From an uncultured Gammaproteobacteria bacterium (GTDB taxonomy: Bacteria > Patescibacteriota > Patescibacteriia > XYB2-FULL-38-15), in assembly GCA_965231095.1 (NCBI GenBank), contig OZ246416.1, positions 1-48,937 on the forward strand: DNA of 48,937 nt. The letters are read 5' to 3'. Shown here piece after piece: positions 2,328-46,318 of the stretch. The translations under genes were made by a program, and so were the position numbers. Numbering within the stretch: the first letter of the stretch is position 1; each line of letters begins with the position of its first letter. Below the pieces are notes generated by a model that saw only the letters and a program-made list of their open reading frames with translations, was not told the origin of the DNA and searched no databases.

Positions 2328-2344
2328 GAAAGCGAGGTGAAAGC

Positions 2345-2596
2345 ATGGGACAAGAAGTAAAAAGAAAAAGAGGAGAAACTTTTGAAAGCATGATGAGGCG
2401 TTTTAGCCGCCGCGTTCAGCAAAGCGGAAAATTGTTGCAAGCAAAAAAAATCAGATTTCACACATCGGAAAAAAGCCGCAACTTGCAAAAAGCCTCGGCA
2501 TTACGCCGCGAAGAAATCAAGAAAAAAAGAGAATACTTGAAAAAAATCGGCAAACTCAAAGACGAATTTGAAACAAAAAATAAATTTAGAAGATAA
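2345..2596 (+). CDS. rpsU: 30S ribosomal protein bS21
   Basis: EVKRKRGETFESMMRRFSRRVQQSG pattern, basic 83 aa, upstream of yqeY as usual; SD-like GAGGTG. Confidence 0.85.
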   Translation: MGQEVKRKRGETFESMMRRFSRRVQQSGKLLQAKKIRFHTSEKSRNLQKASALRREEIKKKREYLKKIGKLKDEFETKNKFRR

Positions 2597-2607
2597 ATTT
2601 GTTTTTC

Positions 2608-3060: not shown

Positions 3061-3065
3061 AAAAT

Positions 3066-3095
3066 CCCGCCCTCACGGAGACTATGGCGGGCAGG
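3066..3095. repeat. Short GC-rich palindrome (REP-like or terminator)
   Basis: CCCGCC-14 nt-GGCGGG followed by CAGG, just after the yqeY stop. Confidence 0.45.
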
Positions 3096-3139
3096 CAAAA
3101 ACAAAAAACGCAAAAGTGAAAAATTTAACTTTGCCACAC

Positions 3140-4978: not shown

Positions 4979-5002
4979 TAATATAATTAGTGTGGCCAGA
5001 TT

Positions 5003-11000: not shown

Positions 11001-13666
11001 TGAGCGATCCGCCTGTCGCGCCGTCGGTTGTTTCGCCTGGAACTTCCAGTGATGTTTTGCTCAAAGAATATTTTATGTTTGTGGGAGGAAGTTATTGCAC
11101 GCTTTCTAAACTTCCCTGCAATACGGAAAATCCATGCGCCGATGGCGCCGGATCGTGCCAGAATTCTTCCGACGCGATTGGCATTAGAATTTATACCAAC
11201 AAAAATCATTTTGCCCTGACCGATTGGTATTTGGCTCAGGGATTCAGGCCGACGGCTCCGAGCGGCAAAACCGTTGATCAATATGAAGCAGTGGAAGACG
11301 GCCGGACAATTTATGTTTCCGCGGCAAATCAGCCGAGTGATGCGGATGGTTCTGGTTCCGATCCAGATATTTACACTAATGTTTATTTGATTTCATACAA
11401 TGAAGGTGCGAGCCAGGATACAATTGATATTTATAATCAATTGGTGGAAAATTGGAAATTTAATATTAATTTAGCGAATAATAAAGTTTGTAAAAATGCG
11501 GCGGGGGGATTGCCAGAGGGGGAGGCTGCAAATATTTCATGTTCAGCCGATTTGGACTGTCCCCAAACTCCGACGCAATTTTTGTGCGACGCGCCAAAAG
11601 ATAAATTGGCTCGCGACGTAAAACGGTTGCATGATTTGGAAAAAATAAAAGCGGCAGTGGAAAGATACCGTGTGACGCGCGGTTATCCGCCGAAATTGGA
11701 AGCGGGTTCGTATGTCCGAGGAATTTCTACAAGTAGATGGGATTCCTGGGCGGTTTTGGGCCAAGAACTCGGCGGCGGTCTGCCACAAGATCCATTAAAT
11801 AAATTTCAAGGATGTGTTGATCCCTATAGCGCGGATACTTGCTGGGACACGAGCGGAGAAACTTACCGCTGTCCGGGCTTGTCGCATATTTATCAATATC
11901 GTTATGAATCGGCTACGGGGTTTTATAACATTGGCGGTGATTTGGAATACAGGCTTGGAACAATGATAAATCCGAGTTGGAGTTGGTTTAGAGGTGCCGT
12001 CCCGACTTATATTGCTTATGAAAATGTTTGCGATGGTTCAACCTTTAGCGTGGGCGGAGTTTGTGGTGATGGAATCATAAATGCCAGTGAAGAATGCGAG
12101 CCGAGTCTGGCAAACACTTGTTCAAATGATCCAACGACTTTTTGCCGAAGCGATGTGGAATGCGGCGGGGGAACATGCCGGGTTAATGAAGAAAGTTGTA
12201 TTGCATCAAGCGGAGCTACCGGCCGCCGAAGCCGTACTTGTAATTTAGCCACCTGCCGTTTTAATGATTGGGGATCGTGCCTTGCCAGTTGCGGCAACGG
12301 GATTATTGATATTGGTGAAGCTTGCGATCGCGGTCCGGGCGGCGGAAGAATTCCGGGCGGCGGAACCCTGCCTACTAATGAATATCAATGTTCTACGGTT
12401 TGTAGAATGAGCGGTGGTTATTGCGGCGATGGAGTTTTGCAAAGTTCTTTTGGAGAAAGATGCGATGATGGAGCGGATAATGGCCGTTACGGTAGAAAAG
12501 CAGATGGCACGCCATATTGCGCGGCGGGTTGTGTTGGTTCGGCGCCATTTTGCGGAAACACGGTGACTGACGGTGGAGAAGAGTGCGACAGAAATTTACA
12601 AACAACGAGAGGTGTCTGTTATATGGGAGCGGCAAGGCCTGGTGATGAAAGTACTGCTAGCGGACCGTATACCTGTGAAAGTGACAGTGATTGTCCGGGC
12701 GGTTTGCGTTGCGCCGTTTGTTCCGACGCGGGTATTTATCAAAGGATTAGAACAAGTAATTGTTTGCCCAGCGGTCATAGTTCGGAGTGCCGATGGGGTA
12801 CATGGACTGCGTGTACTGTGGCCGGCGAATGCGGCAACAGCGTGGTGGAGGGCGGGGAGCAATGCGACGATGGAAATGATATAGCTACCGATACTTGCAA
12901 TAATTGTCAAAATTCTCGTTGCGGTGACGGCGCGGTGCGTGCAGGGATAGAATCGTGCGATTCGGGTGCGGCCAACGGAACGCCCTGCACGGCGTCGTAT
13001 GGTTCAACTTGTAATTATTGCAGTTCAAGTTGTACTTTGCGGACAGTCTCCGGCCTGACTTGCGGCGACGGGACAGTGAGCGGCGCGGAACAATGTGATA
13101 GTCGTCTGCCTCCATATCCGGCGAGTTGGCTTTGCGTTGATACTTCAAATCCTTGGGGCAAGCCGCTTGATCTTGCCACACCAAGTTGCAGTCCGTCATC
13201 TTGCGCGATTTCCTGCGCGACCGGCCGGGCTTGTGACAATAGAAAGTATGGATCTGGCGGAGCAATTAATCCCGACGCGGACGGAGACGGAATTTTTGAC
13301 GCCTGCGACCCGAATGATAATAGTAATACTGATGGTTGTATGGACGACGCGACAAATTGCGCGAGAGTTGATTTGAGAATTACTGCGGATGCAGGCGATT
13401 TCTTTCAGGTTTATATTGATGGCCACCTTGCTAATACATCGGAACGTTCCGTCATGGGAACTTTAATGGCAAGTATAGATACTCTTTCAAGGGGGCTGCA
13501 TAATTTGCGCATTGTCTATGCTTCAGGAACTCCGTCGGGTATTTATGATGTTGACTTTTACTATGACTCACCTTCAAGAGCGGGAGTTGACTTCGGGGTT
13601 GCTGATTATAGATTGCCACTCGTGAATTTTGGTGATGAAGTAAGAGTTGATTTTACTGTTAGATAA
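5003..13666 (+). CDS. Giant 2887-aa surface protein: VirB2-like pilin, Ig-like and IPT/TIG domains, 13 DUF4215-like Cys repeats, GspG/type IV pilin-like segment
   Basis: Uninterrupted ORF; pilin head paralogous to the upstream gene; TIG-like ITGVSPNDGAVGNYVTIFGQGFG repeats; CGNG...GEDCDDG repeats; RDVKRLHDLEKIKAAVERY motif. Confidence 0.8.
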   Translation: MKPHERKILKFLFSLFLLTGAFLFATTIFAQDFGVNEVGNEIALPTSDPRVVAAQIVRVALGFLGIVAVAIVIYGGFVWMTASGNEEQISKAKKILTNGVIGLVIIVMAFGITQFVLTRLMEVTGISGGPGGGGGGGGGGGGGLPSDSFIVRGIQPNGSVPIRNVTVRVVFNKAVDSTTLTDNFNVRKTADGSLVAGTASASGTVLEFVPNAACPAPNGDRKCFDGDTEFTVEVTTSLRSTDGRNLICGGLAPNCTANFTTGNLVDVTGPTVEITYPDPGDSVSADAIVSIEAEAADDAGISYLEYFSNGGTLGTDAPTGPTPLTYSSIFDWDTTGVTLGSRHTLTAEAFDIDSNNTTSGGVDVIVRAAHCFNGSRDADETDIDCGGADCGTCDGGSCTSGADCRGGTCVGGVCRTLPTITGVSPNDGAVGNYVTIFGQGFGIVPGQVYFNNVLAGAPVCPASTTWQNNQIIVVVPAGATDGAVKVVVPPPTGATAEEYTDQTDDERGPTLPNFDVNDTARPGICSITPDSGEPRSDVVVAGTQFGATQGTSEIIFGGTRAERVSLWTAASIGAVVPLIAPATVPVQVVVGGQNSNPINFRVAATADAPRILSFTPTHGPVGEYVTIFGANFGDTTGQVFFKDALGADLLADVNFPAACGADWWRNDQIIVKVPTGAATDILKITTGGASGGLSDDTIDLTTSDFTVDAGAAGPGICKITPDNGPIDLPVVINGERFGASALVNFYRATPATVTPTDGAQISTSVPVGSQTGPVNVTSGAVTGNSVNFTVQDCRAGATCSSGEQCCRDGSCAVACAAAAGKGYYFWQFSTGQLPVYPQVVESCSNPPPPSPPSPSPWSGRDGGERVCVNALVTARFTTKINPASAGSENILVESCSDQTCVTRSVVAGAIRFLSASSAQDGFEFTPTGNLARNNWYQVTLKSDAALGTGIESCLGGAGCPDGGFFLDGDRDGVEGGDYVWKFKTRDSDETCAIGLIGVLPYEMTLNSVDATQDYNGQCYAAGDVCVAVNCSGYTWGWSSSDVSRATVENRATPDTRATARVETEVGRPVRITGEIPSERKSGVGNLTIDFTDPKVVDKWPNCSDACLNAEIGAKFNTSMNQVSVESAANVHLYIWKCGNGVLEPGEDCDDGNATAGDGCGATCLNEGSDARYGAYCHNSRRETGEDCDGEPFPARCNPTTCLNSGSDGAAAVCGNGLIEEGEDCDGSPFPSGCNATNCLNEGTQALQEISLVGISYNSVAKKIVINPTPISLAPRTYFLPNTYYRAVISDAVMSTSGVHLTDLNYDATSPAGNDSYSWTFKTKDDTNPCAVDRVAVDPQSAILNFIGETQNYSSTPFSNPDLCSPAGQRLGAMDYNWGWTSRDPGVATITNNNNYPSCGNGVKEFGEDCDDGNIAAADGCGASCLNEGTIAPTCGNGAINVGEDCDDSNTRSGDGCNSTCRHEGSVAGGGVCGNRAKERGEDCDDGNAPGPGCSATCLNEGTVTDSRIDPYQTAEAIDLAVEDVAAGVNSSTTEISAAAEGKSDSGDLTLRCGGQDCRAISPSCVLTSNICAGTTSQACTNDEDCTLGVGRNTCCYFKPKVKDCDPTREGAVDCDDGAVNVCRNAKISATFDQVMETASVTGNILVVSDYSGVCPEGATALTLWSGEEKSGWKFAEKIKEWLPAPIAKILARPIAKIENDLAIFGEVKNFINQFSQSLFGWPASAAPASPWCVWPGTSSSVVTRDGDNFVTEVSFSPTKAFDRGQTYFVLLLGDNPATPEIEGIRNAKGVALGGGILRGEYPAPYSAREIYQWLFSTGNDICTLSQVIVAPDTRVFTQNGETQEYFATARDARGRRISSLAGVYAWEWEDWLSNDPTVVELDVWGTCSGTSGAACRNDDGCVLAGGVCETNNKQIATAQNKNGEARILVSAKITADTILSPRTVGRVASGGADATVLLCENPWPADFGVSGGFMDTAFNFKTYYCRDRGELGAEDDLPEVSDPPVAPSVVSPGTSSDVLLKEYFMFVGGSYCTLSKLPCNTENPCADGAGSCQNSSDAIGIRIYTNKNHFALTDWYLAQGFRPTAPSGKTVDQYEAVEDGRTIYVSAANQPSDADGSGSDPDIYTNVYLISYNEGASQDTIDIYNQLVENWKFNINLANNKVCKNAAGGLPEGEAANISCSADLDCPQTPTQFLCDAPKDKLARDVKRLHDLEKIKAAVERYRVTRGYPPKLEAGSYVRGISTSRWDSWAVLGQELGGGLPQDPLNKFQGCVDPYSADTCWDTSGETYRCPGLSHIYQYRYESATGFYNIGGDLEYRLGTMINPSWSWFRGAVPTYIAYENVCDGSTFSVGGVCGDGIINASEECEPSLANTCSNDPTTFCRSDVECGGGTCRVNEESCIASSGATGRRSRTCNLATCRFNDWGSCLASCGNGIIDIGEACDRGPGGGRIPGGGTLPTNEYQCSTVCRMSGGYCGDGVLQSSFGERCDDGADNGRYGRKADGTPYCAAGCVGSAPFCGNTVTDGGEECDRNLQTTRGVCYMGAARPGDESTASGPYTCESDSDCPGGLRCAVCSDAGIYQRIRTSNCLPSGHSSECRWGTWTACTVAGECGNSVVEGGEQCDDGNDIATDTCNNCQNSRCGDGAVRAGIESCDSGAANGTPCTASYGSTCNYCSSSCTLRTVSGLTCGDGTVSGAEQCDSRLPPYPASWLCVDTSNPWGKPLDLATPSCSPSSCAISCATGRACDNRKYGSGGAINPDADGDGIFDACDPNDNSNTDGCMDDATNCARVDLRITADAGDFFQVYIDGHLANTSERSVMGTLMASIDTLSRGLHNLRIVYASGTPSGIYDVDFYYDSPSRAGVDFGVADYRLPLVNFGDEVRVDFTVR

Positions 13667-13702: not shown

Positions 13703-13774
13703 GTCAAAATCATCTCTCAAAAACTATTTTATTTTTTAAGATATATTTTTGACTTTTGACTTTTGACTTTTGAA
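13703..13774. repeat. Heptamer array (TTTTGAC)x3 plus TTTTGAA with upstream inverted partners
   Basis: Units at 13747-13774; GTCAAAA at 13703 and CTCAAAA at 13716. Confidence 0.8.
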
Positions 13775-13782
13775 TTAAACTT

Positions 13783-14466: not shown

Positions 14467-14847
14467 ATGAATACGATATTCAGATTTAGACAATTCCCTG
14501 TTTATAACGACGCGAGGCATTTTCGTAAAGAATTAAAACAATTAAGTAGAATTAAATTTCCCAAAGAAGAACAGTTTTGTTTAATTTCTCAGTTGTGGAG
14601 AGCGCTAGATTCTATAATATTGAATATAGCCGAAGGATCTGATAGATATTCTGATAAAGATTTTAGCCATTTTCTTAATAACGCGCTTACATCTTTAAAT
14701 GAAGTGGTTGCTTGTCTGGATTGTGCGTTTGATGGTGGTTATATAAATATTGAGGAGTTGAATAAATATTTAAGTCAAGCCGAAAATTTAGTAAGGCAGC
14801 TAAAGGCTTTTATTTCCAAAGTGCGAAAAGATAATAGAAGTTTCTAA
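14467..14847 (+). CDS. Four-helix-bundle protein (23S rRNA IVS protein-like family)
   Basis: FRQFPVYNDA, FPKEEQFCLISQLWRALDSIILNIAEGS, FLNNALTSLNEVVACL: family pattern; 126 aa. Confidence 0.88.
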   Translation: MNTIFRFRQFPVYNDARHFRKELKQLSRIKFPKEEQFCLISQLWRALDSIILNIAEGSDRYSDKDFSHFLNNALTSLNEVVACLDCAFDGGYINIEELNKYLSQAENLVRQLKAFISKVRKDNRSF

Positions 14848-14877
14848 GTTTCTTTGTTTCTAAGTTTCTAAGTTTTA
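14838..14877 (-). repeat. Octamer array (AAGTTTCT)n downstream of four-helix-bundle gene, inverted relative to upstream array
   Basis: aagtttct aagtttct ttgtttct aagtttct aagtttta. Confidence 0.8.
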
Positions 14878-14883
14878 AAAATT

Positions 14884-22485: not shown

Positions 22486-22529
22486 GAGACAGGCGGTTAC
22501 TTTTTATCCCATTTTTTGATATAATTAAT

Positions 22530-28439: not shown

Positions 28440-28490
28440 TGTTTGACAGCATTTCCGACCATATATATTTGTGCTATAATATATTAACGT

Positions 28491-29290: not shown

Positions 29291-32200
29291 ATGTTGACAA
29301 ATAATCTTAGAAAACCAAAACGGACTATTTGCACAATTGTTTTGCTTTGTTTTGTTTTGACTCAAGTTATTTCCGGCGTCTTTTTGTACGCTCGTCCGGC
29401 CACGGCGCAGCTCGTTGTCTCTGATCCGGTGACCGGCGCCCAGACAACGGTTAAAAATATAAAAGATTTTTTAAAAATTTTAGTGGTGAACGCCGGGACC
29501 ATGGCCTTGATTAATGCCGCGTCGCGCTTCATGCAAAAAATCTCCTATGATCTGGCCGTGAGTTTGGCTTCGGGCGGGAGTGGGCAAATGCCGCTTTTTT
29601 CCACAGAAGGTTGGGGGGATTATTTGGCCAGTGCCGGGTTGGACGCGGCCGGAGAATTTATCGGGAGTTTTGGCGATATGGTTGGCGTTAATTTTTGCGC
29701 GCCGCCAAATCCCAGAGTTGGATTAGCTTTGCAATTACAATTATCTCAAACTTACGCGGAAGGATTGCCGCCGCCAACTTGCGAATGGTCTTCAATCCAA
29801 TCAAATTGGGAGTCGTTTATCGCCGAAGTTCAGACGGAAGATTTCCTGCGCGAGGCGGCTTCGCAATTTCAAATCGGCTATGGCGCGGGAACTGATCTTG
29901 ATCTGGCCATCAGCACTTATGTCGGGGCTTTTAACGCGGAACGAAGCGCTTCAGATACCGCGGCCTTAACGAGAGAAGAAGGACAAGGATTTTTGCCGGC
30001 TTCGGAATTAATCAGCGGAGACATCAAAACGCCGTCTGAAGTTATCAGGCAAACTTCTCAAATCCAAACCGAAGGGCCGGTTGAAGCGGAGCAATTAAAG
30101 TGGAGCCTTTCCGGCCAGGCGCTTTCCGCCGGAGCCCAAGGAATTTTGACCATGATGGCTTCAACTTTTGTCAGTACTCTTCTTTCCAAAACAATGGAAA
30201 GAATTTTCAGCAAAGGCATGTACTCGCTGGCTGATTTATTTCCCGAAGGAGAAGACGCGACCTCGGAAGAGGGGACAGCTTGGGGCGGGCGCCGCGCCGC
30301 GGAATTGGCTTTTGCCGATTTACTTGTGCCGCAAATTAAAGAAAGTGGCGCTTATGATATTTTATCCGACTTTATTGTTTGCCCGGATAAATTTAAAGGG
30401 ACAAACAATTGCGTGATGGACGGACGGTTTGAAGCGGCAGTTCGGCAAGCGCAAACTGGAGCGCCGCTTACGGTGGCTGCGGCGATTGAAGGAAAATATT
30501 TGGATGAAAAGTGGGCGTTGATTCCGCCGTCTGATTTAGCCGCGAACCAAGATCCGCTTTGTTACACAAGAGGTTTTTGTTATAGCAATTTAGTAAAACT
30601 CCGCAAAGCGAGAATCATTTCCATTGGTTGGGAAATCGCGGCGCAAATCTCTCCCACAACAAGTTATGTCACCTTGAAAGAAGTGGTTGACCGTTTTTAT
30701 GATTGTAATGCCGCGGGCGAGGCCGATAATGAGCATCTCTATTGCCACTTGATTGACCCGAACTGGATCCTGAAAGCGCCGGCCGAGCAATGCCGGGCGC
30801 GAGTTTACGGACCGCTCTTACAAACTACGGAAAATAGTTTTCGCCAAGAAACTTGTGTTGATTCGCCGACCTGTCTTGCCGAAGACGACCAAGGAAATTG
30901 CGAAGGCGGTTGGGGGTATTGCACCAGAGAAAAAAATATCTGGCGGTTAGACGGAGATCAATGCGACGCGCAGTATGATACTTGCAAACTCTTGCGGCGA
31001 AGCGACGGGCAAAATGTCGCTTATGTGACAAATACGGTTGATTACGGCCCGCCTTGCAATGCCGACGATATCGGCTGCCGCTGGTATTCCGACCGGCAAT
31101 CAAAAGTCGGAGATGATTGGCTTTGGCAAGACGCGCTTACCGGTTCGGGAACCGCCGCCCGCCGGACTGATAGAATTTTCTTTAATAAAAACATCGCCCA
31201 GTGCGACGAGCCGGGTTGTAATGAATTTTTACGGACAACTTCGGACACAAAATTAAATTTAGTCACCAATAGCAGTTTTGAAAATTTTATTGACAATCCC
31301 GCTTACGCGACCGACACTTTCGAAGATTGGCCAAATAACGGTGAAGCATCAAACGACACGTATTTCGGCCGAACGGCTCTGCGTTTTGTTGGACTATTTT
31401 CCCGAGACATCACCTTGGAAGAGCCCAAAGCCGGCCGGACTTTTGTTTTATCTTTTTATGCCAAAAATGTCAGCGATACGGAAACTTGTAATGGAATAGT
31501 ATCTTTTGAGGGACTGGCAGAAGATTTGCCGGCGGGTTCTGCTTATGAGCGGGTTACCATAGAAAAAACCGCCGCGGGCGTTGGCCGAACTTTGAATTTC
31601 CGTTTTGGCGGAGCGGGGAATTGTTTAATTGATGCCGTGCAGCTTGAAGAAGGAACTTTTGCTTCGCAATACCATGAGGGTTGGGGAAGAACCGGCGAAG
31701 CGTTATATTTAAAAACCGCGCCGGATTATTATTCTTGTTATGATTACACTTCGGTCGGCGCTTTGGATAAAACAAACGACGCCCAGCAGTGCGGAAATTT
31801 TGCCAAGGCCTGCGAAGAAAAAGATGTGGGCTGCGAAGAGTATCGTCCGACAAACGGCGATCCGTCGGTGCCGGGCGTGGCCAATTATCCGGACGATTAT
31901 TGTCCGGCCGAGTGCGTTGGTTATCAAACTTTTAAACAAGTGGCGACTGATTTTGAACAAGATAAATTTCCGGTTTATTTTATTCCAACCACCGGCCGAA
32001 CTTGCAACGCCGCGGACGCGGGCTGCGATCAATTTACCAGTTTGGAAACTGAAGCCGTAGCCAATTTCAGTTATGTTCGCCGTTGCGAAAAACCGGGCGC
32101 GACAGGAGCGGCTTTCTACACTTGGGAAGGAAGTGATACGGCCGGTTATCAGATAAAAACTTGGAATTTAAAAATGGCGCAAAGTTCCGTGGTGCCAACT

Positions 32201-35200
32201 ACGCCGGACGGTTCCGACCCAGCTGGCGGCAGACCGCCATGTACTGCGTTAATGGCTGATGGTTTGTCTTGTGACGATACTTCGCTTGTCGGCCTTTGCA
32301 CCAAAGCCGACACACTTATCAACCCCGACTGCCGTGAATTTTACGACGCGGCCGGTTTAAAACATTATCGCCTGTATTCCAAGACGATTGTGGTCTCTGA
32401 CGATTGCCATCCGTACCGCAAAACTCTTTCTACCGCCGGCGATTGCGGAGCTTCCGGCGGAAGATGGGACGCGGTAAAAAGTGAGTGCGCTTACAATGTT
32501 TATCTGCCGGAATCCAGAAGCTGCAGCAACGAGGCCGTCGGCTGCCGGGCTTATCGCGGAAACGCCGGAGCAAATACCGCCGTGGTTTTGAATGATAATT
32601 TTGATGATTCATTGATCGCCAATTGGGACGAAGCAGATACCCCGACCATAAGTTCTGAATCACTGGTAGTCGGCGGAAAATCTTTGTCTTTTAACGCCGG
32701 AGAAACAATAGACAAAAGTCTTTCCACTTCAATTCGCCAGGGCGGCCTTTATACTCTATCTTTTTGGGCCAAGGGTGCGAGCCGTCTTGATATAAAATTT
32801 TTGGGTGCCGATTCTAACGATAAAGTATTCAGCTCGGCAACCAAAAGCCCGACCAACCTTTCTTTTGACTGGCGATATTTTTCGCTCGGTCCGGTTTATG
32901 TTGACTGGGGCGTCGCCGGCGGAGGAGAAACTTTACGAATTTCCGCGGTGGGCGGAGGAACGCCGGCTTACATTGATAATATTATTTTGCGTGAAGTTCA
33001 ATCATATATTTATGTAGTGAAAAATTCTTGGACTACGCCAATTTCTTGCGACCGGTCTTTTGCGATTGATACTTCAATCACCGAGGCCGCGGCTTGTGCG
33101 ACTTCCGGCGGTTCTTGGAGTGCCGACCGCGGAGAGTGTGTTCTTTCCGCGCTTTTGCCGCAAGCCCAGCTTGGATGCGCGAGTTATTTTGACCGCGCGA
33201 ACGGCCTGCATTATCTAAAATCTTTCTCGCGGCTTTGCTCGCCGGACGTGGCCGGTTGCGCGAAATTGTTGAAGACAAATAATAATGCCTCAACTGCCGA
33301 GGAAACTTACAATACAGAAAACGACAGCGATCCGTCGCTTTCAGACGAAGAAAGATTGTCGGACAACGTGACGATCCCGGCTGATTCTTTCTCTTATATT
33401 GTGGTGGATGACGCGTATGAATGCGCGGCGCAAAATAAAGGTTGCGCCGAATTTGGTTCGCCGACGCTTGATGCCGCAGGAAATGCGAAAGTTGATGCCG
33501 ATGGCAAACCGCAATACAGTACGGTAAATCTTCTGGCCAATCCAACGCTCTATAATTCCGCGACCGGCCGAATTCTCTGCCAAGTCGGATTCCTGGCCTG
33601 CGAAGAATATACCACAACCGACGGCGGAAAATTATATTTTAAAAATCCGGAGCCGCGACTTTGCGAATGGAAAGATAATGTAAATCTTAGCGGGCAAAAT
33701 GTTTCCGGATGGTTTAAAAAACAAGAAAAAGCATCTGATCCACTTTTGCCTTGCGACCCGGCAAATTTCAATGGCGGATATTATAATATTTGGAAAAATG
33801 GCGACACGAAATGTAATTTGCCATATGTCTGCCAAGACGCCGCGGGTTGCGCTTGTACAGTTGGAACGGCCGGCGCGACCGGTGCGCCCGGCACAACTTG
33901 CACGGTTTCTTACAATAAACGTTCTTGCCCGTACTCCGGCTGGGTTGGGGAGTGCATTCCGCAAGCTGACCAATGCACAAAATTTGTTGATCCCGCGGAC
34001 ACGACAGAAGATCCTCTGGGCGCGGCATATTATTACATTAATAATGACAAAATAAGTTCAGGAAATTGCAATGGCATGGCTTCGCAAAAAAGCGGATGTG
34101 TGTTGTTTAATGATACAAGCAATCCGCAGTTGGATAAAAATGCCAACGCGACGTATTGGGCTTCGGAAGCAAAAGTCAGCGATCCGGGTGGGCTCGTAGC
34201 ACCAATTGATTGTCGGCCGGACGACGCGAGTTGCGGTAAAAAATGTATTAAAACGGTGGCTGGCGGAGGTTATTCATATTATCGTTATTGTCGAGACCGA
34301 AATGATTGCGATATTACGGAACGTGCCGACGATGATCCAGCGGCTCGTGACCAATGCGTGGTAGTTTTGTCGCGATTGCGTAACGACTCCAATCGTCTTG
34401 TCCAAGTTCGCCGCGACCGCGTCTGCGGAGAATGGCTGACGTGCTCGGGCACCAACCATACTTTTGATCCGCAAACAGGCCGAGAAAAAGTTTTGTGCGA
34501 ACAAATTGATGTTTGCAATCAATATGCAAAAGTTGGCCAGGCGACAGCGCAATGCACAAATATTCTTGCCCCAGAAGAAGTTGAAACCAACCGAAAACTT
34601 TTGAGCAAAGAATTATATGTTTCTCGCGATACGACTTTCAAGGGAATGGATTACTCCGGAGATTCTATTTATAACCAGTATCAAGCGCAAAATTTACGTA
34701 GCGTAAACGTTGGTACAGTTGAAAGCCCGGTTCCTGCTTTGGCTTTTATTGAGGACAGATGTTTTGACGCCGCCGGTCTGCTAGATGACTGTGGAACGCG
34801 TCCGGACGGTTTTTGTGAGAGCGACGTAAATGATTCCCCGTGTGGAGATAATGGTAAATGTTTTAATCATATTTGCGTTACAAATTTTCGCGGAGATCCT
34901 TTTGTTCCGGGTGCTGTAAAAATTTTTGACGCGACAAACAGAGAAAATATTTCTTGCCGCGCTTATCCCGAGCAGAGCTCGCCATTCCCCAATAGCGTGG
35001 TTAAAAACTGGACACCCTTGAGTAAAAAACCCGGTTTCACCGGAGCAAATATCTGTGAAAACAGAGAAGCTTGTGATTGTTCTTATTTGAAAGCGAGTTA
35101 CGGCAGCGGCGCAGTGACAAAATATTTTGATGAAGAAAAGGATCCCTTGCCTTCAGTTTGTGTTGGTGGTAAAGATGCCGGGAAAACTTGCACAGATCTT

Positions 35201-37552
35201 CCCACTGATTGTCCTGGGGGAACATGTAATGCGCCAGACCGTGAAGATGCTGTTCTTGGCTGGAGTGGTTATTGTTTAGAGCGCGATACAGCAACTTCAA
35301 TAAATGGAAATTCGGAACAATTTGCTTGTTTGACTTGGTATCCGATGGATCAAATCCCTGGTATGCCTGATTTATTTAATAATTATCCTGAAGCAGGGTT
35401 TGAAACTGCAGGATTTAATTACTATTGTCTGCAGCCGGATCTTTACAAAACCTATAATGTCAATGATGGCAGTTATTCCTGTCATGATGCCGATGAAGAG
35501 GGAGAGTGCGATCCCGGAGATCGCGCGGCGTGTCTTGATCAGGTTAGTTGTCCTGACGGATTTGTTGCGATTATTGGCGCTTGCGAAGAATGGGGCGGTG
35601 CCTGCGTAGGTGATGTTTGGGACGATTGCCCATATACTTGCGTTCCTAAATTTTCTTATCATACAGAAGGACCCAGCGAAGGCGAGCCGTGCTTTACGGA
35701 TGATATCAACGCAAGAGCGCACCCAACCAAATTGGCAAGTTGGGAAGCTCCATTAAATGGTTTGCTTGGCGGCAGTAACAATTATCTTGGCGATCCGATT
35801 TATGATGACTGCGCTCGTTATGGCGCGCCATACAATGCTGTAAATACCGGCACAACATCCAGCGACTATTTTGTAGGTTGCAGGGTTGCGGCCAAGGTTG
35901 TTTCGGAAATAGGCGGCAGAGAAGAAAACAGGGCCTGGACAAATCGTCTTTGGTTAAATCCCGCCGGAACATACTATTCAATTTCCGTGCCGGATGACGG
36001 CAGGTCTGGACCAGAAAAAGAAAAACTTCATTTTAATTACAATTCCGCGGTCGCGCCTTTTGGCACAATTAATTTTGACGGAAGCAATGTCGCCCTAGAA
36101 GGCGCTGAGGCGGTTAATTTCCCGATGACCGTAAAAATGTGTCGAGAGGGAGCCGCCGGCGATGCCCAGTGGCATTGGTTTTTGCCGGAAACGGATCCGG
36201 ATCTTTCTTGCACAACAGAGCCGGTTCCAACCTCGGGAGAAAATCAAGCAAGGCCATATACTTTAATTGAGACGGGAAAGTTAGCTGGCGCAGGCGGCAC
36301 TTGCAGTAGTAATAGTGATTGCAATGTTGGTGTGAGTTGCGGTGTGGGCGCCGGGGCGTTTCAATGTTATGCGGATTGCAATACTGGCGCAGACTGTTCT
36401 GATGGAAATTGTGCAGCAGTTCCGAGAGATAGCTCTGGAGAAAAATATTGCCCGGCTGATTTAATCGGCGGGGTGACCGGAGGCCAGTGCACCACCGAGC
36501 GAAATGGCGTTTGGCTTGGAGAATGCGGCGGAGCGCACGGAGGCGATAAATGTAAAACGTCCGCTGACGAAAGTTATAATACCTGCATGGATCAAACTTG
36601 CGCGTTTACTTTTTTTGGTTTAGGTTTTTGTGTGGCGTCCGGCGGATCATATAATTCTCCAATTCATCCGGTAAGATCGGAAACAGTTGATTTGGGGTTG
36701 AAAGCTTTTCATCAACTTTTTGCGAGAGTTTATGGACTTTTAGAATGGAAACCGGAGTTGGGTAGATATGCCAGCATAACTTATTCCGGCGATCTTGATA
36801 AAACTGATAAGGACGGAACAACGCCTGGTCCTGTTGGCGCGCAGTGGCCGGCGCCGCCCCAAGTTTGGCCAATTACGAAATGTACTGGCGACCAATGCGT
36901 GCCGCTGAAAGTGGTGAATACAACCCCGGTGAATGGAATTACGGTCGGCGGTATCAGCGGTTTTGGTTTTACCGGAACCGGCGCGACTGAACCCGTAAAT
37001 GTCGTCGGTTACGGCGGACAGTACGTCGCCACCATGCAGTTCTTTGGTACCGCGGACCCAAACGCCGGTCCGATCAGGGATGTTCGAGTTGATTGGAACG
37101 ACAGTACTGATCTTGGAGGCACAACAAACGCCAGATACAAAAATCATCTTGGTATAAAAGACGACGGCTCATCCCAATGTGACAACGCTGATTTTTCTCG
37201 TTCTGCCGGCGCTTGTGTTGAAGATTATTTCTATTTCACCCATACTTACAAATGTCCCGATGACGGAGCGGGTGTTGATGTTTGCGCTTCGGACACTGAC
37301 ACAAATTGTTATACAACCACTTGCCCTGAAGATATAAACGGCGCAATCACGGAAAATGGTTCCTGTTGTGTCTTCAAACCAAGAGTGCAACTCAAAGATA
37401 ACTGGGGGTGGTGCAATGGGACTTGCCCGGGCGGAGCGGGGCCGACGAGTAATGGATGTTATTTGGATGAGTGTTTGACAGATGCAGTTGAGGTTGGAAA
37501 ATATCAATGGACAGACTTCGCTGGCAAGGTGATTGTAGTGCCAAAAGATTAA
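29291..37552 (+). CDS. Giant 2753-aa secreted Cys-rich protein with two carbohydrate-binding-like jelly-roll domains
   Basis: N-terminal signal (ARPATA-Q), helical N-domain, many CxxxxxC modules, NLVTNSSFE...IDAVQLEEG and YTLSFWAKG...YIDNIILRE. Confidence 0.7.
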   Translation: MLTNNLRKPKRTICTIVLLCFVLTQVISGVFLYARPATAQLVVSDPVTGAQTTVKNIKDFLKILVVNAGTMALINAASRFMQKISYDLAVSLASGGSGQMPLFSTEGWGDYLASAGLDAAGEFIGSFGDMVGVNFCAPPNPRVGLALQLQLSQTYAEGLPPPTCEWSSIQSNWESFIAEVQTEDFLREAASQFQIGYGAGTDLDLAISTYVGAFNAERSASDTAALTREEGQGFLPASELISGDIKTPSEVIRQTSQIQTEGPVEAEQLKWSLSGQALSAGAQGILTMMASTFVSTLLSKTMERIFSKGMYSLADLFPEGEDATSEEGTAWGGRRAAELAFADLLVPQIKESGAYDILSDFIVCPDKFKGTNNCVMDGRFEAAVRQAQTGAPLTVAAAIEGKYLDEKWALIPPSDLAANQDPLCYTRGFCYSNLVKLRKARIISIGWEIAAQISPTTSYVTLKEVVDRFYDCNAAGEADNEHLYCHLIDPNWILKAPAEQCRARVYGPLLQTTENSFRQETCVDSPTCLAEDDQGNCEGGWGYCTREKNIWRLDGDQCDAQYDTCKLLRRSDGQNVAYVTNTVDYGPPCNADDIGCRWYSDRQSKVGDDWLWQDALTGSGTAARRTDRIFFNKNIAQCDEPGCNEFLRTTSDTKLNLVTNSSFENFIDNPAYATDTFEDWPNNGEASNDTYFGRTALRFVGLFSRDITLEEPKAGRTFVLSFYAKNVSDTETCNGIVSFEGLAEDLPAGSAYERVTIEKTAAGVGRTLNFRFGGAGNCLIDAVQLEEGTFASQYHEGWGRTGEALYLKTAPDYYSCYDYTSVGALDKTNDAQQCGNFAKACEEKDVGCEEYRPTNGDPSVPGVANYPDDYCPAECVGYQTFKQVATDFEQDKFPVYFIPTTGRTCNAADAGCDQFTSLETEAVANFSYVRRCEKPGATGAAFYTWEGSDTAGYQIKTWNLKMAQSSVVPTTPDGSDPAGGRPPCTALMADGLSCDDTSLVGLCTKADTLINPDCREFYDAAGLKHYRLYSKTIVVSDDCHPYRKTLSTAGDCGASGGRWDAVKSECAYNVYLPESRSCSNEAVGCRAYRGNAGANTAVVLNDNFDDSLIANWDEADTPTISSESLVVGGKSLSFNAGETIDKSLSTSIRQGGLYTLSFWAKGASRLDIKFLGADSNDKVFSSATKSPTNLSFDWRYFSLGPVYVDWGVAGGGETLRISAVGGGTPAYIDNIILREVQSYIYVVKNSWTTPISCDRSFAIDTSITEAAACATSGGSWSADRGECVLSALLPQAQLGCASYFDRANGLHYLKSFSRLCSPDVAGCAKLLKTNNNASTAEETYNTENDSDPSLSDEERLSDNVTIPADSFSYIVVDDAYECAAQNKGCAEFGSPTLDAAGNAKVDADGKPQYSTVNLLANPTLYNSATGRILCQVGFLACEEYTTTDGGKLYFKNPEPRLCEWKDNVNLSGQNVSGWFKKQEKASDPLLPCDPANFNGGYYNIWKNGDTKCNLPYVCQDAAGCACTVGTAGATGAPGTTCTVSYNKRSCPYSGWVGECIPQADQCTKFVDPADTTEDPLGAAYYYINNDKISSGNCNGMASQKSGCVLFNDTSNPQLDKNANATYWASEAKVSDPGGLVAPIDCRPDDASCGKKCIKTVAGGGYSYYRYCRDRNDCDITERADDDPAARDQCVVVLSRLRNDSNRLVQVRRDRVCGEWLTCSGTNHTFDPQTGREKVLCEQIDVCNQYAKVGQATAQCTNILAPEEVETNRKLLSKELYVSRDTTFKGMDYSGDSIYNQYQAQNLRSVNVGTVESPVPALAFIEDRCFDAAGLLDDCGTRPDGFCESDVNDSPCGDNGKCFNHICVTNFRGDPFVPGAVKIFDATNRENISCRAYPEQSSPFPNSVVKNWTPLSKKPGFTGANICENREACDCSYLKASYGSGAVTKYFDEEKDPLPSVCVGGKDAGKTCTDLPTDCPGGTCNAPDREDAVLGWSGYCLERDTATSINGNSEQFACLTWYPMDQIPGMPDLFNNYPEAGFETAGFNYYCLQPDLYKTYNVNDGSYSCHDADEEGECDPGDRAACLDQVSCPDGFVAIIGACEEWGGACVGDVWDDCPYTCVPKFSYHTEGPSEGEPCFTDDINARAHPTKLASWEAPLNGLLGGSNNYLGDPIYDDCARYGAPYNAVNTGTTSSDYFVGCRVAAKVVSEIGGREENRAWTNRLWLNPAGTYYSISVPDDGRSGPEKEKLHFNYNSAVAPFGTINFDGSNVALEGAEAVNFPMTVKMCREGAAGDAQWHWFLPETDPDLSCTTEPVPTSGENQARPYTLIETGKLAGAGGTCSSNSDCNVGVSCGVGAGAFQCYADCNTGADCSDGNCAAVPRDSSGEKYCPADLIGGVTGGQCTTERNGVWLGECGGAHGGDKCKTSADESYNTCMDQTCAFTFFGLGFCVASGGSYNSPIHPVRSETVDLGLKAFHQLFARVYGLLEWKPELGRYASITYSGDLDKTDKDGTTPGPVGAQWPAPPQVWPITKCTGDQCVPLKVVNTTPVNGITVGGISGFGFTGTGATEPVNVVGYGGQYVATMQFFGTADPNAGPIRDVRVDWNDSTDLGGTTNARYKNHLGIKDDGSSQCDNADFSRSAGACVEDYFYFTHTYKCPDDGAGVDVCASDTDTNCYTTTCPEDINGAITENGSCCVFKPRVQLKDNWGWCNGTCPGGAGPTSNGCYLDECLTDAVEVGKYQWTDFAGKVIVVPKD

Positions 37553-37571
37553 AGAATAAAAATTTTGTAAT

Positions 37572-37620
37572 AAAAAAAAATGACCCCGCGCGTTCTCCTC
37601 TTCAGAGAATTCGCGGGGTC
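37572..37620 (-). terminator. Intrinsic terminator of cassette A with GAAGA loop
   Basis: Minus strand GACCCCGCG-AA-TTCTCT-GAAGA-GGAGAA-CG-CGCGGGGTC then A and a U-run. Confidence 0.8.
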
Positions 37621-37625
37621 TGTCG

Positions 37626-38108
37626 TCACTGGGGGTCGGCCCACCAGGTACCGTTCCATGGAGGAGTGGCACTCACCCAGTAATCGCCCTCCATGCGGGG
37701 GGGGGTCTCGGTGAAGTTGCCGGTGACCGTGCGGTCGGTGGTGTAGCAGTCTACGAAAATGGAAAGGTAACCACCCTCCGAGATCGTGCCCGACCATTCG
37801 CAGGAGACATCGTCAACGCCGATCACGAGACAGCCGTCCTGTTCAAGAGTGAGCAAGAGATGATCTTCCGCACCCGTTTCCGTGTTCCGATACGTCAGTG
37901 CCCAATCTCCCGCCACGCTCGGGCAGCTCGCAACTTCACTCGTGTCGCCGTCGTCGGTCTCGGCGTCCGCGTCCGTTCCGGCATCGCTGTCCGGGTCGCC
38001 GCTGTCGCAGAGCGACGGATCGCTCGCGCAGTCGTCGTCCCCGTCGGGGCAGCCGGTCATGGCGCCGAGCGCCAGGATCGTGAGCGTCACCATCCAGAAC
38101 TTCTTCAT
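37626..38108 (-). CDS. GC-rich predicted lipoprotein: acidic Asp/Cys linker plus beta-rich domain
   Basis: Lipobox AMTG-C after a hydrophobic stretch; strong SD AAGGAGGAG; C-ending codons unlike neighbouring genes. Confidence 0.7.
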   Translation of the reverse strand: MKKFWMVTLTILALGAMTGCPDGDDDCASDPSLCDSGDPDSDAGTDADAETDDGDTSEVASCPSVAGDWALTYRNTETGAEDHLLLTLEQDGCLVIGVDDVSCEWSGTISEGGYLSIFVDCYTTDRTVTGNFTETPPRMEGDYWVSATPPWNGTWWADPQ

Positions 38109-38249
38109 CGAACTCCTCCTTGTCCATCCTCGCTGGGATGGCCTTTTCTTTTAAACAGCCCCCTTGGCTGTTTGGGCTATGAAGCCCACACGAAAAAGCG
38201 TTATTTTCGCCCTTTCGTCTGGGTTTTAAGCCAAATCAAAACACCTTTT

Positions 38250-38278
38250 AATATACTATATTTTTCTCATTTTGTCAA
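38250..38278 (-). promoter_or_regulatory. Sigma70 promoter of cassette A
   Basis: TTGACA-17 nt-TATATT on the minus strand. Confidence 0.7.
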
Positions 38279-38408
38279 CCCCGTAGTGAAATTTTGGATT
38301 TTTCCGCTTAAAACTGCGAAAACATCTTTCCATCCCAACTAACTCTTATTACAACCAAATAATCTTTGGTGACTTCCATTTTTGCATTCCGAAATTCTAC
38401 TACGGGGT
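38278..38408. mobile_element. MITE-like element, about 131 bp
   Basis: Terminal inverted repeats ACCCCGTAGT/ACTACGGGGT, extendable imperfectly to about 17-20 bp; no ORF; AT-rich interior. Confidence 0.55.
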
Positions 38409-38490
38409 CAATAGCCGCTTACATTTCTTCTTTTCATTTATATTATATCAAAAAATGATGAAAATTTCATTATAATAAAGTAAAATAAAT

Positions 38491-38533
38491 AAAAAATTCC
38501 CCGCGGCCTTTCCTCTTCGGAAATTCCGCGGGG
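38491..38533 (-). terminator. Intrinsic terminator of cassette B with GAAGA loop
   Basis: Minus strand CCCCGCGG-AA-TTTCC-GAAGA-GGAAA-GG-CCGCGGGG then AA and a U-run. Confidence 0.8.
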
Positions 38534-38564
38534 TTTTCGTGTCTGTGCCTGGAGTGGCGCTGGC

Positions 38565-39011
38565 CTAGCGTATCTCTTTCTGTCCTCCCTTGCAGCGGCT
38601 GTAGTTCATGTCGCAGAGCCCCTTGCCGGCCCAGCCGATGGCTTCCGCCTGGCACTCACGGTATTTCTCGTCGCAGCTTTTTTGGGTTTTCGTGTACCAG
38701 AGAACGCCCGCGATGATGGCCACAACGATTGCGAAGATGATCTTGAGGGCGTTCCAGAGGGGCTTTAGGGAGACTTCCTCGGCCGGCGGTTCGTTCGCCG
38801 TGGTGAGTATGGAGCCGCAGTGCTTGCACTTCGTGGCCGTCGCCAGGATCTCCTCCGAACAGAACGGGCATCGCTTCATCTGTTCGGCGAGTGGCGCTCC
38901 GTCAGGTTTTTTGGCCGTGGGCGGTTTCGGGAAAAAGTCCGGAAGCGACGCCCCACACTCGCAAAACGAGTTGGTCGGATCGATCTCGACCCCGCAAGTC
39001 GCGCACTTCAT
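38565..39011 (-). CDS. GC-rich zinc-ribbon membrane protein (double zinc ribbon, zinc ribbon, TM, short Cys-containing tail)
   Basis: CATC...CECG, CPFC...CKHC, TM IIFAIVVAIIAGVLWY; ATG 39011 is 9 nt after AAGGAGGA, better spaced than ATG 39020. Confidence 0.7.
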   Translation of the reverse strand: MKCATCGVEIDPTNSFCECGASLPDFFPKPPTAKKPDGAPLAEQMKRCPFCSEEILATATKCKHCGSILTTANEPPAEEVSLKPLWNALKIIFAIVVAIIAGVLWYTKTQKSCDEKYRECQAEAIGWAGKGLCDMNYSRCKGGQKEIR

Positions 39012-39087
39012 GGATTCCATTCCTCCTTCTTTTTCCGCCCTCAGCGGAAGTTGTGCGGCGCCCCTTGCGCCGCTTTCTGCTACTTTT

Positions 39088-39115
39088 AATCTACGCTATT
39101 TGGGGATTTTGTCAA
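39088..39115 (-). promoter_or_regulatory. Sigma70 promoter of cassette B
   Basis: TTGACA-16 nt-TAGATT on the minus strand; shares TTGACAAAAT and ATTAAAAG with the cassette A promoter. Confidence 0.6.
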
Positions 39116-39214
39116 GGCTATTTTGCCCTCCCGCCAGGCGGGTTTTTGTGATATAATAAATTAATTAAAGTTTGCGGAATAAATACGCAGACAATTTTTA
39201 CTTATCTTTTTTCC

Positions 39215-39853
39215 ATGGCGAATTTTGAGGAGCAAAAATTTCAAAGTGAATTGCGGCAGGCGCAAACGGCTTCATCTAATCAACCGCAAGAAGAAGCTCC
39301 GGAAGAAGCCTCTCCCGAAGAGCCGGAAACATTAGAATCGTCCGAAGCCGAGCAGGCGGCCAGCTCATCGCTTTTCGCAAAAAAAGCCAAAGCCGCGGCA
39401 GAGAAAAAAGTTGGACAGGGGATACAAAAAGCCGGCCAGGCAGGGAAAGGAGCTTCTTTTCTTTTGCGGCGAATCGGTGGGGCTCTTATTTCTTTTGGCG
39501 CCGGAGCGGGAATATCCATAATCGGTTTGATTTTTGGTTTGCCACTTTTGCTAATCGGCATCGGCATTGTCATCATCGGAATTTTTTCTTCAATGGCTTC
39601 GCAGGCCACAATTATGGCCGGGGAAGTTATAGAAAAGAAAGCCAAGGCAGAAGAAAAAAAGATTGTCCAAGCGGCAGGAGGCGGAGGAGGGGGACTGCTT
39701 GATATTTCCGGGAAGGCCGAGCAGGCGGCTAAAGTCGCAAAAAAATTTTCCGGATTTTTGGCCGGGGTATTTATCTCTATTGGGTGCTCATTTTTAGGAT
39801 TATTTTCCGGTTTTATCTTTATCGCGGCGATTGTGATGTTTCTTGTAAGTTAA
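39215..39853 (+). CDS. Hypothetical membrane protein of the T4SS-like locus
   Basis: Acidic N-terminus, Gly-rich hydrophobic hairpin, C-terminal TM. Confidence 0.6.
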   Translation: MANFEEQKFQSELRQAQTASSNQPQEEAPEEASPEEPETLESSEAEQAASSSLFAKKAKAAAEKKVGQGIQKAGQAGKGASFLLRRIGGALISFGAGAGISIIGLIFGLPLLLIGIGIVIIGIFSSMASQATIMAGEVIEKKAKAEEKKIVQAAGGGGGGLLDISGKAEQAAKVAKKFSGFLAGVFISIGCSFLGLFSGFIFIAAIVMFLVS

Positions 39854-46293: not shown

Positions 46294-46318
46294 GAAAAAA
46301 TGCTATAATATAGTAAAT

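Follow-up and report, generated by a model that had tools for sequence, protein, structure and literature searches.

A copy-number-variable array of candidate envelope-protein transcription units between a giant gene and a type IV secretion system-like cluster in Falkowbacteria-like Patescibacteria

Contig OZ246416.1 of assembly GCA_965231095.1, from an uncultured bacterium recorded under Gammaproteobacteria and placed by GTDB in Patescibacteriota (XYB2-FULL-38-15), carries two adjoining transcription units, both complete and both on the minus strand (positions 39115-37570), cassette B followed by cassette A. The entire stretch analyzed, positions 1 to 48,937 of this contig, is termed the window. 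The two units probably belong to a tandem array, specific to the lineage and variable in copy number, of envelope-protein genes with independent transcription, in which the conserved expression frames would serve as homology arms for recombination; moderate confidence is placed in this reading. The array slot in Falkowbacteria-like Patescibacteria is bounded on one side by the giant gene's 3′ end and on the other by a cluster similar to type IV secretion system (T4SS) genes. The observations behind this are the anatomy of the units, the synteny of the slot, the variation in copy number and content, a dichotomy in base composition and two junctions within frame homology.

Cassette B begins with a predicted promoter at 39088..39115 which has TTGACA at 39115-39110, a 16-nucleotide (nt) spacer and TAGATT ending at 39088, and then a conserved AAAAG (all cassette features are on the minus strand). 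The fold of the whole leader has a z-score of -3.9. Hairpin 1 of the leader, GCGGCGC-AAGGG-GCGCCGC, is at 39055..39073. Hairpin 2, TTCCGC-TGAGG-GCGGAA, is predicted by folding at 39033..39049 and is directly 5′ of the ribosome-binding site, the Shine-Dalgarno (SD) sequence AAGGAGGA at 39021..39028. The open reading frame (ORF) at 38565..39011 encodes 148 amino acids (aa) and has a GC content at third codon positions (GC3) of 0.78. There is an alternative upstream ATG at 39020; the second ATG at 39011 is the most likely start because it gives a 10-nt SD spacing and agrees with the homologues (the orthologue in the related contig L003 begins MKCATCG). The unit ends at 38489..38533 with a terminator, termed T1, whose 13-pair hairpin (38533-38499) has a GAAGA loop and is interrupted by a 2x2 internal loop; a T-run comes next, and the terminator scores 76 bits with a covariance model.

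The predicted promoter of cassette A at 38250..38278 has TTGACA, a 17-nt spacer and TATATT, matches the consensus at 11 of 12 positions and is the best found in a 20-kb scan. An extra promoter of this unit, of the extended -10 type (TGATATAAT) and in the style of the host genes, is predicted upstream at 38442..38470. The leader at 38109..38244 is about 135 nt long, has a fold z-score of -4.3 and shows four or five hairpins. These include P1 (38223-38185), P2 (38187-38174), P3 (AACAGCC-AAGGG-GGCTGTT, 38173-38153) and the pre-SD hairpin CCATCC-CAGCGA-GGATGG at 38141-38124; the SD is at 38121-38113. The centroid structures of both leaders, A and B, leave the SD unpaired, and both fold far beyond shuffled sequence. 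ORF A at 37626..38108 encodes 160 aa with a GC3 of 0.79. The terminator at 37570..37620 is of the T1 type with a variant stem, TTCTC/GAGAA (hairpin 37620-37582), then a T-run, and scores 64 bits with the covariance model. It is located 18 nt past the stop codon of the convergent giant gene and is 76% identical to the cassette B terminator across 51 nt.

The leaders thus fall into two classes, a short S class (B, about 60 nt) and a long L class which has the extra upstream extended -10 promoter (A). S leaders generally read CGGCGC-AAGGG-GCGCCG, next TCCGCC-GAGA-GGCGGA and next the SD; L leaders are generally 130-290 nt long with several hairpins. The conserved region with the extended -10 promoter is found upstream of the L leader at all loci checked, which are the window, L003, L004, L043 and L076. 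The AAGGG loops of A and B are not positional homologues, and other L leaders have CAGACACGG-AAUGA-GCCGUGUUUG in place of the A hairpin. A sequence-only reading of this region had listed for each unit a promoter, an AAGGG hairpin, a second hairpin, a strong SD, a GC-rich ORF and a GAAGA-loop terminator, and every one of these elements is present on the minus strand. Its proposal of a non-coding frame shared by both units is correct in that the frame is separable from the ORF, but the leaders are of different classes and their AAGGG loops are not homologous.

Searches with leader and terminator models, which the same reading had proposed as a check, place these elements at two sites in the window. 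The terminator covariance model, made from 15 terminators, displays no further window sites besides those of A and B, with weaker opposite-strand matches at the same two palindromic sites, and the leader profile hidden Markov models, one per class, give a single window match each with nhmmer. The sequence TTGACAAAAT has exactly two occurrences in the 48,937 bases, both at these promoters. When one genome each of 185,579 species was scanned for the exact T1 pattern there were 49 hits, and two of these are in Patescibacteria, once in each genome and at this slot. The same pattern has 18 hits in JGI metagenomes, six of which are related contigs. It is absent from the viral contigs scanned, and no similar DNA was found in phage or plasmid records.

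Among 5.8 billion proteins, protein A has 34 homologues, and those with a source name belong to Patescibacteria, Candidatus Falkowbacteria among them. A full-family profile of A gives 148 hits among 1.84 billion cluster representatives, 26 of them at E <= 1e-10, and the family appears to be small. Four close homologues of protein B were found in a search of the protein collection. Genomic context could be read in 13 contigs, from assemblies of JGI, NCBI, ENA and Logan. In all 13 the 3′ end of a giant gene encoding 2,750-2,950 aa faces the homologue convergently, and the opening gene of the T4SS-like cluster usually diverges from the array. In the window the giant gene (29291..37552, plus strand, 2,753 aa) is convergent with the array and is the constant right-hand neighbour in every related locus. 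The first gene of the T4SS-like cluster (39215..39853, plus strand, 212 aa) is divergent from cassette B and is the usual left-hand neighbour, with PrgI and TrsD/VirB4-like genes downstream. The position between the giant gene and the T4SS-like genes, as the sequence-only reading described it, is therefore the same slot in the related contigs. All related sequences are metagenome assemblies, in which repeats may be mis-joined.

The number and content of the units vary at this slot. About 34 cassette ORFs were catalogued in approximately 13 related contigs, in independent and in bicistronic units. L078 and L079 have one unit, L055 and L081 have three, L057 has four and L080 has seven genes. The four units of L003 encode a 296-aa protein, a 647-aa protein with four Big_7 domains and an Lcl_C domain, the 148-aa orthologue of B (82% identity) and a 233-aa protein with Lcl_C. 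The ORF types found in the frames are beta-barrel lipoprotein, Big_7 plus Lcl_C, Lcl_C alone, Cys-rich and Zn-ribbon. The expectation that the frames would bracket diverse single ORFs is thus borne out with respect to the several types, although most members share a signal peptide and an acidic linker and some units are bicistronic. Single-unit loci hold an L-type A cassette; A is therefore the conserved core member, and S-type units such as B are optional.

Protein A displays a lipoprotein-type signal peptide (..LGAMTGC), an Asp-rich disordered linker and a C-terminal 8-stranded antiparallel beta-barrel at residues ~62-160, which AlphaFold models with a pLDDT of ~97. Cys20 is invariant after the hydrophobic stretch ..LG(A/L)(M/T)TGC, and the -3 position is not the canonical L/V/I. 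Protein A has no Pfam or NCBIfam family. Fold searches give weak matches only, the best (E = 3.6e-4) to one domain of quinohemoprotein amine dehydrogenase, followed by avidins and calycin-like barrels, Cap15 and lipocalins; the modeled structure thus points to a fold class and not to a function. Protein B has two predicted zinc ribbons (Pfam Zn_Ribbon_1 and DZR), one hydrophobic, putative transmembrane segment and a short Cys-rich C-terminal tail. Its homologues in related contigs have 82%, 78% and 62% identity, and there was no significant match to solved structures. The T4SS_pilin domain was not found by Pfam in either protein. No similarity was detected between A and B, as the sequence-only reading had stated.

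All members except B open with M(T/K)KFWM...LG..TGC(P/S)D(G)DD and continue with a Cys/Asp-rich linker. The conserved frame extends approximately 150 nt into the ORF, and variation is chiefly in the C-terminal domain. About ten further protein clusters match this N-terminal module alone in the search with the full-family profile. A profile of the 41-position module gave no match at E <= 0.001 among the 5.8 billion proteins, and is too short for that database. Close relatives of the cassettes were not found outside the lineage; the sole candidate outsider is a distant beta-barrel homologue, P0057. This 517-aa protein has four tandem copies of the A-type barrel and is rich in Ala and Arg, which hints at a high-GC organism. 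Another protein, P0061 (601 aa), has four Big_7 domains fused to an A-type barrel. The A-type barrel appears to be a shuffled module with distant relatives outside of the array.

The base composition of the cassette ORFs is sharply different from that of the host genes. GC3 is 0.79 for A and 0.78 for B, compared with 0.43 +/- 0.05 (maximum 0.51) for the 29 other window genes. For 32 of the approximately 34 catalogued cassette ORFs, in 13 contigs, GC3 is 0.73 +/- 0.08 with a minimum of 0.54, and for 28 non-cassette genes at the same loci it is 0.40 +/- 0.05 with a maximum of 0.48, so that the two sets do not overlap. Small opposite-strand genes embedded in the arrays have a host-like GC3 and the cassette frames themselves are AT-rich (0.39-0.43 GC); the bias is not a regional mutational effect. 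Protein B is a different kind of protein and its ORF has the bias too. Among A orthologues, identity at 4-fold sites is only 48-69%, against 35% expected at saturation, yet these sites have a GC of 0.72-0.84 in every lineage. The GC3 bias is thus a maintained property of ORFs expressed from the frames and, being high in all 32 ORFs despite the 4-fold divergence, is not a trace of recent import.

Expression signals separate the same two groups of genes. A and B are the sole minus-strand genes of the window. A strong SD is otherwise found in one gene, and an SD of any kind in one or two of the 29, so the earlier statement that most host genes lack an SD is upheld. The pre-SD region has a mean folding energy of -18.7 kcal/mol in 25 cassettes and of -4.6 kcal/mol in 29 host genes (p = 9e-10). 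Host genes at 22530, 28491 and 46319 display a perfect extended -10 sequence (TGnTATAAT) that ends 5-11 nt before the start, and no SD; these regions are at 22517-22529, 28472-28490 and 46301-46318. It suggests that expression from leaderless mRNAs is common in the genome. The cassette units are also the only genes head-on to a strong plus-strand GC skew, and such an orientation may add to their rapid evolution.

T1 is a real hairpin that has the properties of an intrinsic (Rho-independent) terminator. Its alignment has 97% of cells in paired state and compensatory changes at 4 of the 13 pairs, the 2x2 internal loop and the apical loop are both conserved, and a T-run follows in 15 of 15 copies. 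A second terminator, T2, is a longer, unrelated hairpin which is found on the last units beside the giant gene and once internally (unit c3 of L057). L leaders, in an alignment of eight, have compensatory changes in 8 of 28 predicted pairs. The -35 box of S-type cassettes is TTGACA in nine of ten aligned (TTGAGC in unit c1 of L003), and six pairs of hairpin 1 are retained in all ten S leaders with no covariation. A hairpin is found at the hairpin-2 position in almost all cassettes, with several different stem sequences. Rfam 15 has no family for the leaders or terminators at gathering scores, and matches at E <= 5 are at chance level. CsrA-type regulation, which involves GGA in hairpin loops, was considered and dropped, since the conserved loop is AAGGG/AAGGU and not a GGA loop.

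Two junctions between units were examined, and both are inside conserved frames; no junction was found at the terminator hairpin. Window cassette A and unit c4 of L003 have a homologous promoter, 5′ leader and first 150 nt of the ORF, and their ORF bodies differ (beta-barrel versus Lcl_C). Both terminators are T1 with 0.78 identity, although blastn instead paired the terminator of A with that of unit c3. L074 and L075 encode an identical A protein, and the difference between them is a 95-aa ORF with the same SD plus ATGACAAGGTTTTGGA repeated directly on either side, the signature of unequal homologous recombination between 5′ frames. The leader and terminator of B are more similar to those of the paralogous unit c2 of L003 (0.85 and 0.94) than to those of the orthologous unit c3 (0.78 and 0.86), which suggests, on few positions, separate histories of frames and ORFs. 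Junctions inside the homologous frame are as expected for homologous recombination. In addition, partial reverse-oriented copies of the 3′ end of the giant gene are present inside the arrays of L004 (1-400) and L080 (~4600-5250). These are remnants of segmental duplications that took in the last cassette together with the end of the giant gene, and they indicate that arrays have grown in this way. A search for repeats in the L003 array showed only a 70%-identical paralogous Lcl_C stretch. A diversity-generating retroelement for the Lcl_C members was considered and rejected, as there is no reverse transcriptase (RT) in the window and there are no template/variable repeats in the window region or in the L003 array.

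These data can be joined in the following scheme, in which expression level, surface location, the recombination mechanism and the reason for GC-rich coding are inferred. A near-consensus promoter, 5′ hairpins, an exposed strong SD, a GC-rich ORF and a strong terminator would together give strong SD-dependent expression from a stable mRNA. The units would have arisen via duplication of whole transcription units. Most products would be lipoproteins that join a common N-terminal export and anchor module and an acidic linker to differing C-terminal binding domains, i.e. beta-barrel, Ig-like Big_7, lectin-like Lcl_C or Cys-rich domains. The 5′ promoter-leader-SD-signal peptide region and the 3′ terminator could act as homology arms, and homologous recombination or gene conversion within a genome, probably also between strains, would add, delete and swap ORF bodies and C-terminal domains. 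The array would thereby show cassette-like behaviour with no dedicated recombinase. The products are most likely surface proteins for contact with a host cell or the environment, as judged from their predicted domains.

Several points weigh against this scheme. The promoters, transcription starts and terminators are predictions from consensus or folding only. The case for recombination depends on two clear junctions and on small differences between short sequences, of a few nucleotides in the comparison of the B leader and terminator with those of L003, and the L074/L075 difference comes from metagenome assemblies that are possibly chimeric at repeats. Hairpin 1 of the S leader, conserved without covariation, could be a DNA-level or protein-binding site and not an RNA stabiliser. 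Cassette B is without the lipoprotein module, and its entry into an S frame is left unaccounted for. The scheme also gives no reason for the GC3 values; selection on mRNA stability or structure behind a GC3 of 0.7-0.8 is a guess. Lastly, frames outside of the slot are excluded for the window and two other species genomes only.

The sequence-only reading regarded the two genes as foreign, and recent horizontal acquisition of both from a high-GC donor, with SD and terminator and adjacent by chance, is one way to account for a GC3 of 0.78-0.79 against 0.43, for the strong SDs and for the opposite strand. The distant four-repeat barrel homologue P0057 also fits such a donor, its high-GC origin being judged from Ala/Arg-rich composition only. 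However the 34 close homologues of A, and those of B with context examined, occupy the same Patescibacteria slot, the bias is found in all 32 ORFs whatever the protein type while embedded opposite-strand genes are host-like, 4-fold sites keep their high GC in every lineage after extensive divergence, and the frames are AT-rich and conserved across the lineage. Recent import is thus quite unlikely, and the description of these genes as foreign is not supported: A is a core member that is syntenic with the giant gene in every locus examined, the close relatives are lineage-confined and the high GC3 is maintained.

An integron-like capture system, with T1 as the recombination site at which a site-specific recombinase encoded elsewhere inserts single foreign ORFs that each have their own promoter, would explain why ~35-nt imperfect palindromes with conserved internal and apical loops are found at the 3′ end of every unit, why array content and copy number vary, why ORF composition is sharply unlike that of the host, and also why cassette B is without the lipoprotein module. 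Integron cassettes are likewise diverse single-ORF units with a terminal imperfect palindrome, in one orientation at one locus and with a composition unlike the host. The array differs from them in the lack of the IntI tyrosine recombinase, attI and Pc and in that its cassettes carry their own promoters (TTGACA-N16/17-TAnAnT), whereas integron cassettes mostly have no promoter and depend on Pc for expression. T1 is a 35-nt hairpin plus T-run, unlike attC sites, which are 57-141 nt long and have an R''/L''...L'/R' arrangement with a GTTRRRY core; no attC-like GTTRRRY/RYYYAAC core was found in T1. The T-run after every copy is the behaviour of an intrinsic terminator, the last unit often has the unrelated T2, and no T1 is found outside of the slot in two species genomes. 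Homology between units begins ahead of the -35 box and takes in the whole signal peptide, and the indel junction is at the SD/start codon and not at the palindrome. Pfam scans of the 29 other window ORFs show only housekeeping and T4SS-like genes and no integrase, recombinase, RT, phage or mobile-element gene, and the genes called in the related loci have no recombinase or RT Pfam family on record. The earlier statement that no integrase or attC was seen is thus confirmed. A dedicated capture mechanism is not supported, as the window has neither an integrase, an RT nor an attC-like core and the two junctions examined are inside the homologous frame. The cassette format of the earlier reading is real as a modular expression frame that recurs with varied contents at one locus, and integron-like capture of foreign genes is considered very unlikely.

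Another view is that the motifs represent a generic strong promoter and terminator style of the genome and that the two units came to resemble each other by convergence. Hexamers of the TTGACA/TATAAT type, and GC-rich hairpins with T-runs, are universal signals, and the extended -10 motif TGATATAAT is common to host promoters. On the other hand the motifs occur at two sites only in 49 kb, identity continues through spacers, loops and flanks, the host genes use a different style, and the terminator pattern is found once per genome in two related species genomes. The sequence-only reading had named a generic style, or occurrence nowhere else, as what would refute it; the host promoters differ and the motifs are found in ~13 related contigs, always at this slot. 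A generic style therefore has very little probability.

Phase or antigenic variation of the Mycoplasma vsp/vlp type was also considered, in which units are switched by inversion or by slippage in promoter spacers. Such a system likewise shows lipoprotein genes in tandem whose 5′ region and signal peptide are conserved and whose C-termini vary, the promoter spacers here are A-rich, and an inverted-repeat segment that could be part of a switch abuts the -35 box of promoter A. This segment is a 129-bp element (38279..38407, minus strand) with 21-nt arms that are 86% complementary and terminal inverted repeats of ~20 nt (CCCCGTAGT...ACTACGGGG). TTGA is duplicated on both sides of the element, and the duplication regenerates TTGACA. 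The corresponding empty site, ATTGACAAAAT, is present in L003. At the same site a Falkowbacteria metagenome-assembled genome (MAG) has a 110-bp element (L004 798-907, L043 2678-2787) that is similar at its ends but not in its interior. Because of the TTGA duplication, the empty site in L003 and the location outside of the promoter, the element looks like a miniature transposon, similar to a miniature inverted-repeat transposable element (MITE), with TTGA target preference. It has been seen in one orientation only. Every unit has a complete promoter, the spacers have no long homopolymer tracts and no recombinase gene is nearby. Switching of this kind is unlikely, and the array with frames as homology arms is preferred.

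The Mycoplasma variable surface lipoprotein loci (M. bovis vsp, M. hyorhinis vlp, M. pulmonis vsa and M. agalactiae vpma) are nevertheless the closest known design. Switching of vsp genes works by site-specific inversion. These loci and the array have in common tandem lipoprotein genes in a small-genome host-associated bacterium, a conserved 5′ region, a conserved signal-peptide start, variable mature parts and a repertoire that differs between strains. The 13 vsp genes each have a conserved promoter/5′ region of ~150 bp and a conserved signal-peptide segment of ~75 bp (PMC10504702). The array differs in that a complete promoter and a separate terminator belong to each unit, in that no site-specific recombinase or invertible promoter was found, and in that variation affects whole C-terminal domains and gene number and not in-frame repeat blocks. 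Its ORFs are strongly GC-shifted relative to the genome, and member B is not a lipoprotein and has no signal peptide. Homology with Mycoplasma is not indicated, as there are no Mollicutes among the named-source proteins within the 34 returned for A.

The leaders resemble those of E. coli ompA and B. subtilis aprE, where 5′ stabiliser hairpins and a strong SD are found in long-lived mRNAs; these genes encode abundant envelope proteins. Likenesses are a stable hairpin near the predicted 5′ end, an unpaired strong SD and a strong 3′ hairpin. Unlike ompA and aprE, the first hairpin of the array leaders is ~8-10 nt from the predicted start and not at the very end of the transcript. Patescibacteria themselves have variable tandem arrays of VirB2-like pilin genes beside the T4SS, and these were compared with variable pilin genes, amplified in tandem, whose proposed role in pathogens is antigenic variation (PMC12102498). 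Both are variable tandem sets of small secreted proteins beside T4SS genes, and the present products differ in that they are not pilins, are encoded on the opposite strand, and have conserved expression frames and a deviant codon composition. A term search of PMC12102498 brought up neither "GC content" nor "opposite strand", and no lipoprotein units of this kind. No description of the lipoprotein units was found in a search of the full-text literature.

A milder relation to integrons is possible, although doubtful: the frames may be portable homology arms by which surface-protein ORFs pass between strains through transformation. The array would then be the functional counterpart of an integron, but with no recombinase, and GC-rich coding would be selected for mRNA stability. 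It is highly improbable that the cassettes represent an expression regime for another cell, i.e. a (GC-richer) host bacterium after delivery of the DNA via the adjacent, relaxase-less T4SS-like machine. That idea arises because canonical promoters, long leaders, strong SDs, high-GC codons and intrinsic terminators are found amid SD-poor, partly leaderless-looking genes.

Patescibacteria live attached to other microbes, and the surface molecules of contact are mostly unknown. Some T4SS components have homologues that are reported to be essential when cultivated relatives grow as epibionts (PMC12102498). The locus described here provides a bounded set of candidates, a fast-changing lipoprotein array with binding-type domains (beta-barrel, Ig-like and lectin-like) that is fixed beside a giant surface protein and T4SS-like genes. 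It also appears to represent a second expression mode, a long structured leader plus SD, alongside SD-poor and partly leaderless-looking neighbours. A GC3 shift of ~0.3 in every array member, across lineages with largely diverged synonymous sites, is accounted for by neither ordinary amelioration nor recent transfer. If conserved expression signals do act as recombination arms, they would provide cassette-like gene turnover with no integrase.

The GC-rich, SD-led style may extend to more envelope genes than this array. L057 has at 1151-3670 (minus strand), just outside of the array, a gene for an 839-aa lipoprotein with a GC3 of 0.68 and an SD, which has a different leader (TTGACAAGACC...AGGAGGAAATCATG).

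The other matches to the T1 pattern are unrelated. Among the 49 species-genome hits, 47 are mostly a Gaiellaceae/Actinomycetes palindromic repeat without a T-run, the rest being chance matches in high-GC genomes; among the 18 metagenome hits, 12 are unrelated, eleven of them copies of a Firmicutes CAG:110-type terminator and one a Gaiellaceae-type repeat. The palindromic repeat, GGGGAACCGGGAGGTTCCCCGCG..GAAGAAGGGGG..CGCGGGGGAAACATGGTTTCCCCCGCG, is present in several copies per genome in MAGs of Gaiellaceae and other Actinomycetes, and its match to the terminator pattern is fortuitous. It is found at loci L005, L006, L010, L012, L013, L015-L017, L019, L020, L022, L029, L031 and L033, and also at L034, L038-L042, L044, L046, L049, L051, L053 and L054.

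The window is otherwise ordinary chromosome, with genes for HisRS, FtsA/FtsZ, NrdD, a release factor and KsgA, two giant surface-protein genes, and the PrgI-like and TrsD/VirB4-like genes. The giant genes are at 5003-13666 (2,887 aa) and 29291-37552 (2,753 aa). The 2,753-aa protein has zero Pfam matches, and the 2,887-aa protein displays an N-terminal T4SS_pilin domain followed by TIG, Big_5, Big_7 and DUF4215 repeats. A 620-aa gene at 3116-4978 joins T4SS_pilin with Big_5. The space that separates the promoter of cassette B from the divergent one of the T4SS-like cluster has, at 39130-39158 (plus strand), a small GC hairpin (CCCGCCAGGCGGG) and then TTTTTGTGATATAAT; the TTTTTGATATAATA motif of this segment, inverted, forms the upstream promoter of cassette A. 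Short intergenic tandem repeats are found at 13740-13782 (GACTTTT x3, upstream of 13783) and at 14848-14883 (AGTTTCTA-like, upstream of 14884). These repeats flank a low-GC (0.31) gene at 14467-14847 for a 23S rRNA intervening-sequence protein. At positions 1-58 the window begins with the 3′ part of a tRNA gene that is cut by the window edge (Rfam tRNA, 42.8 bits).

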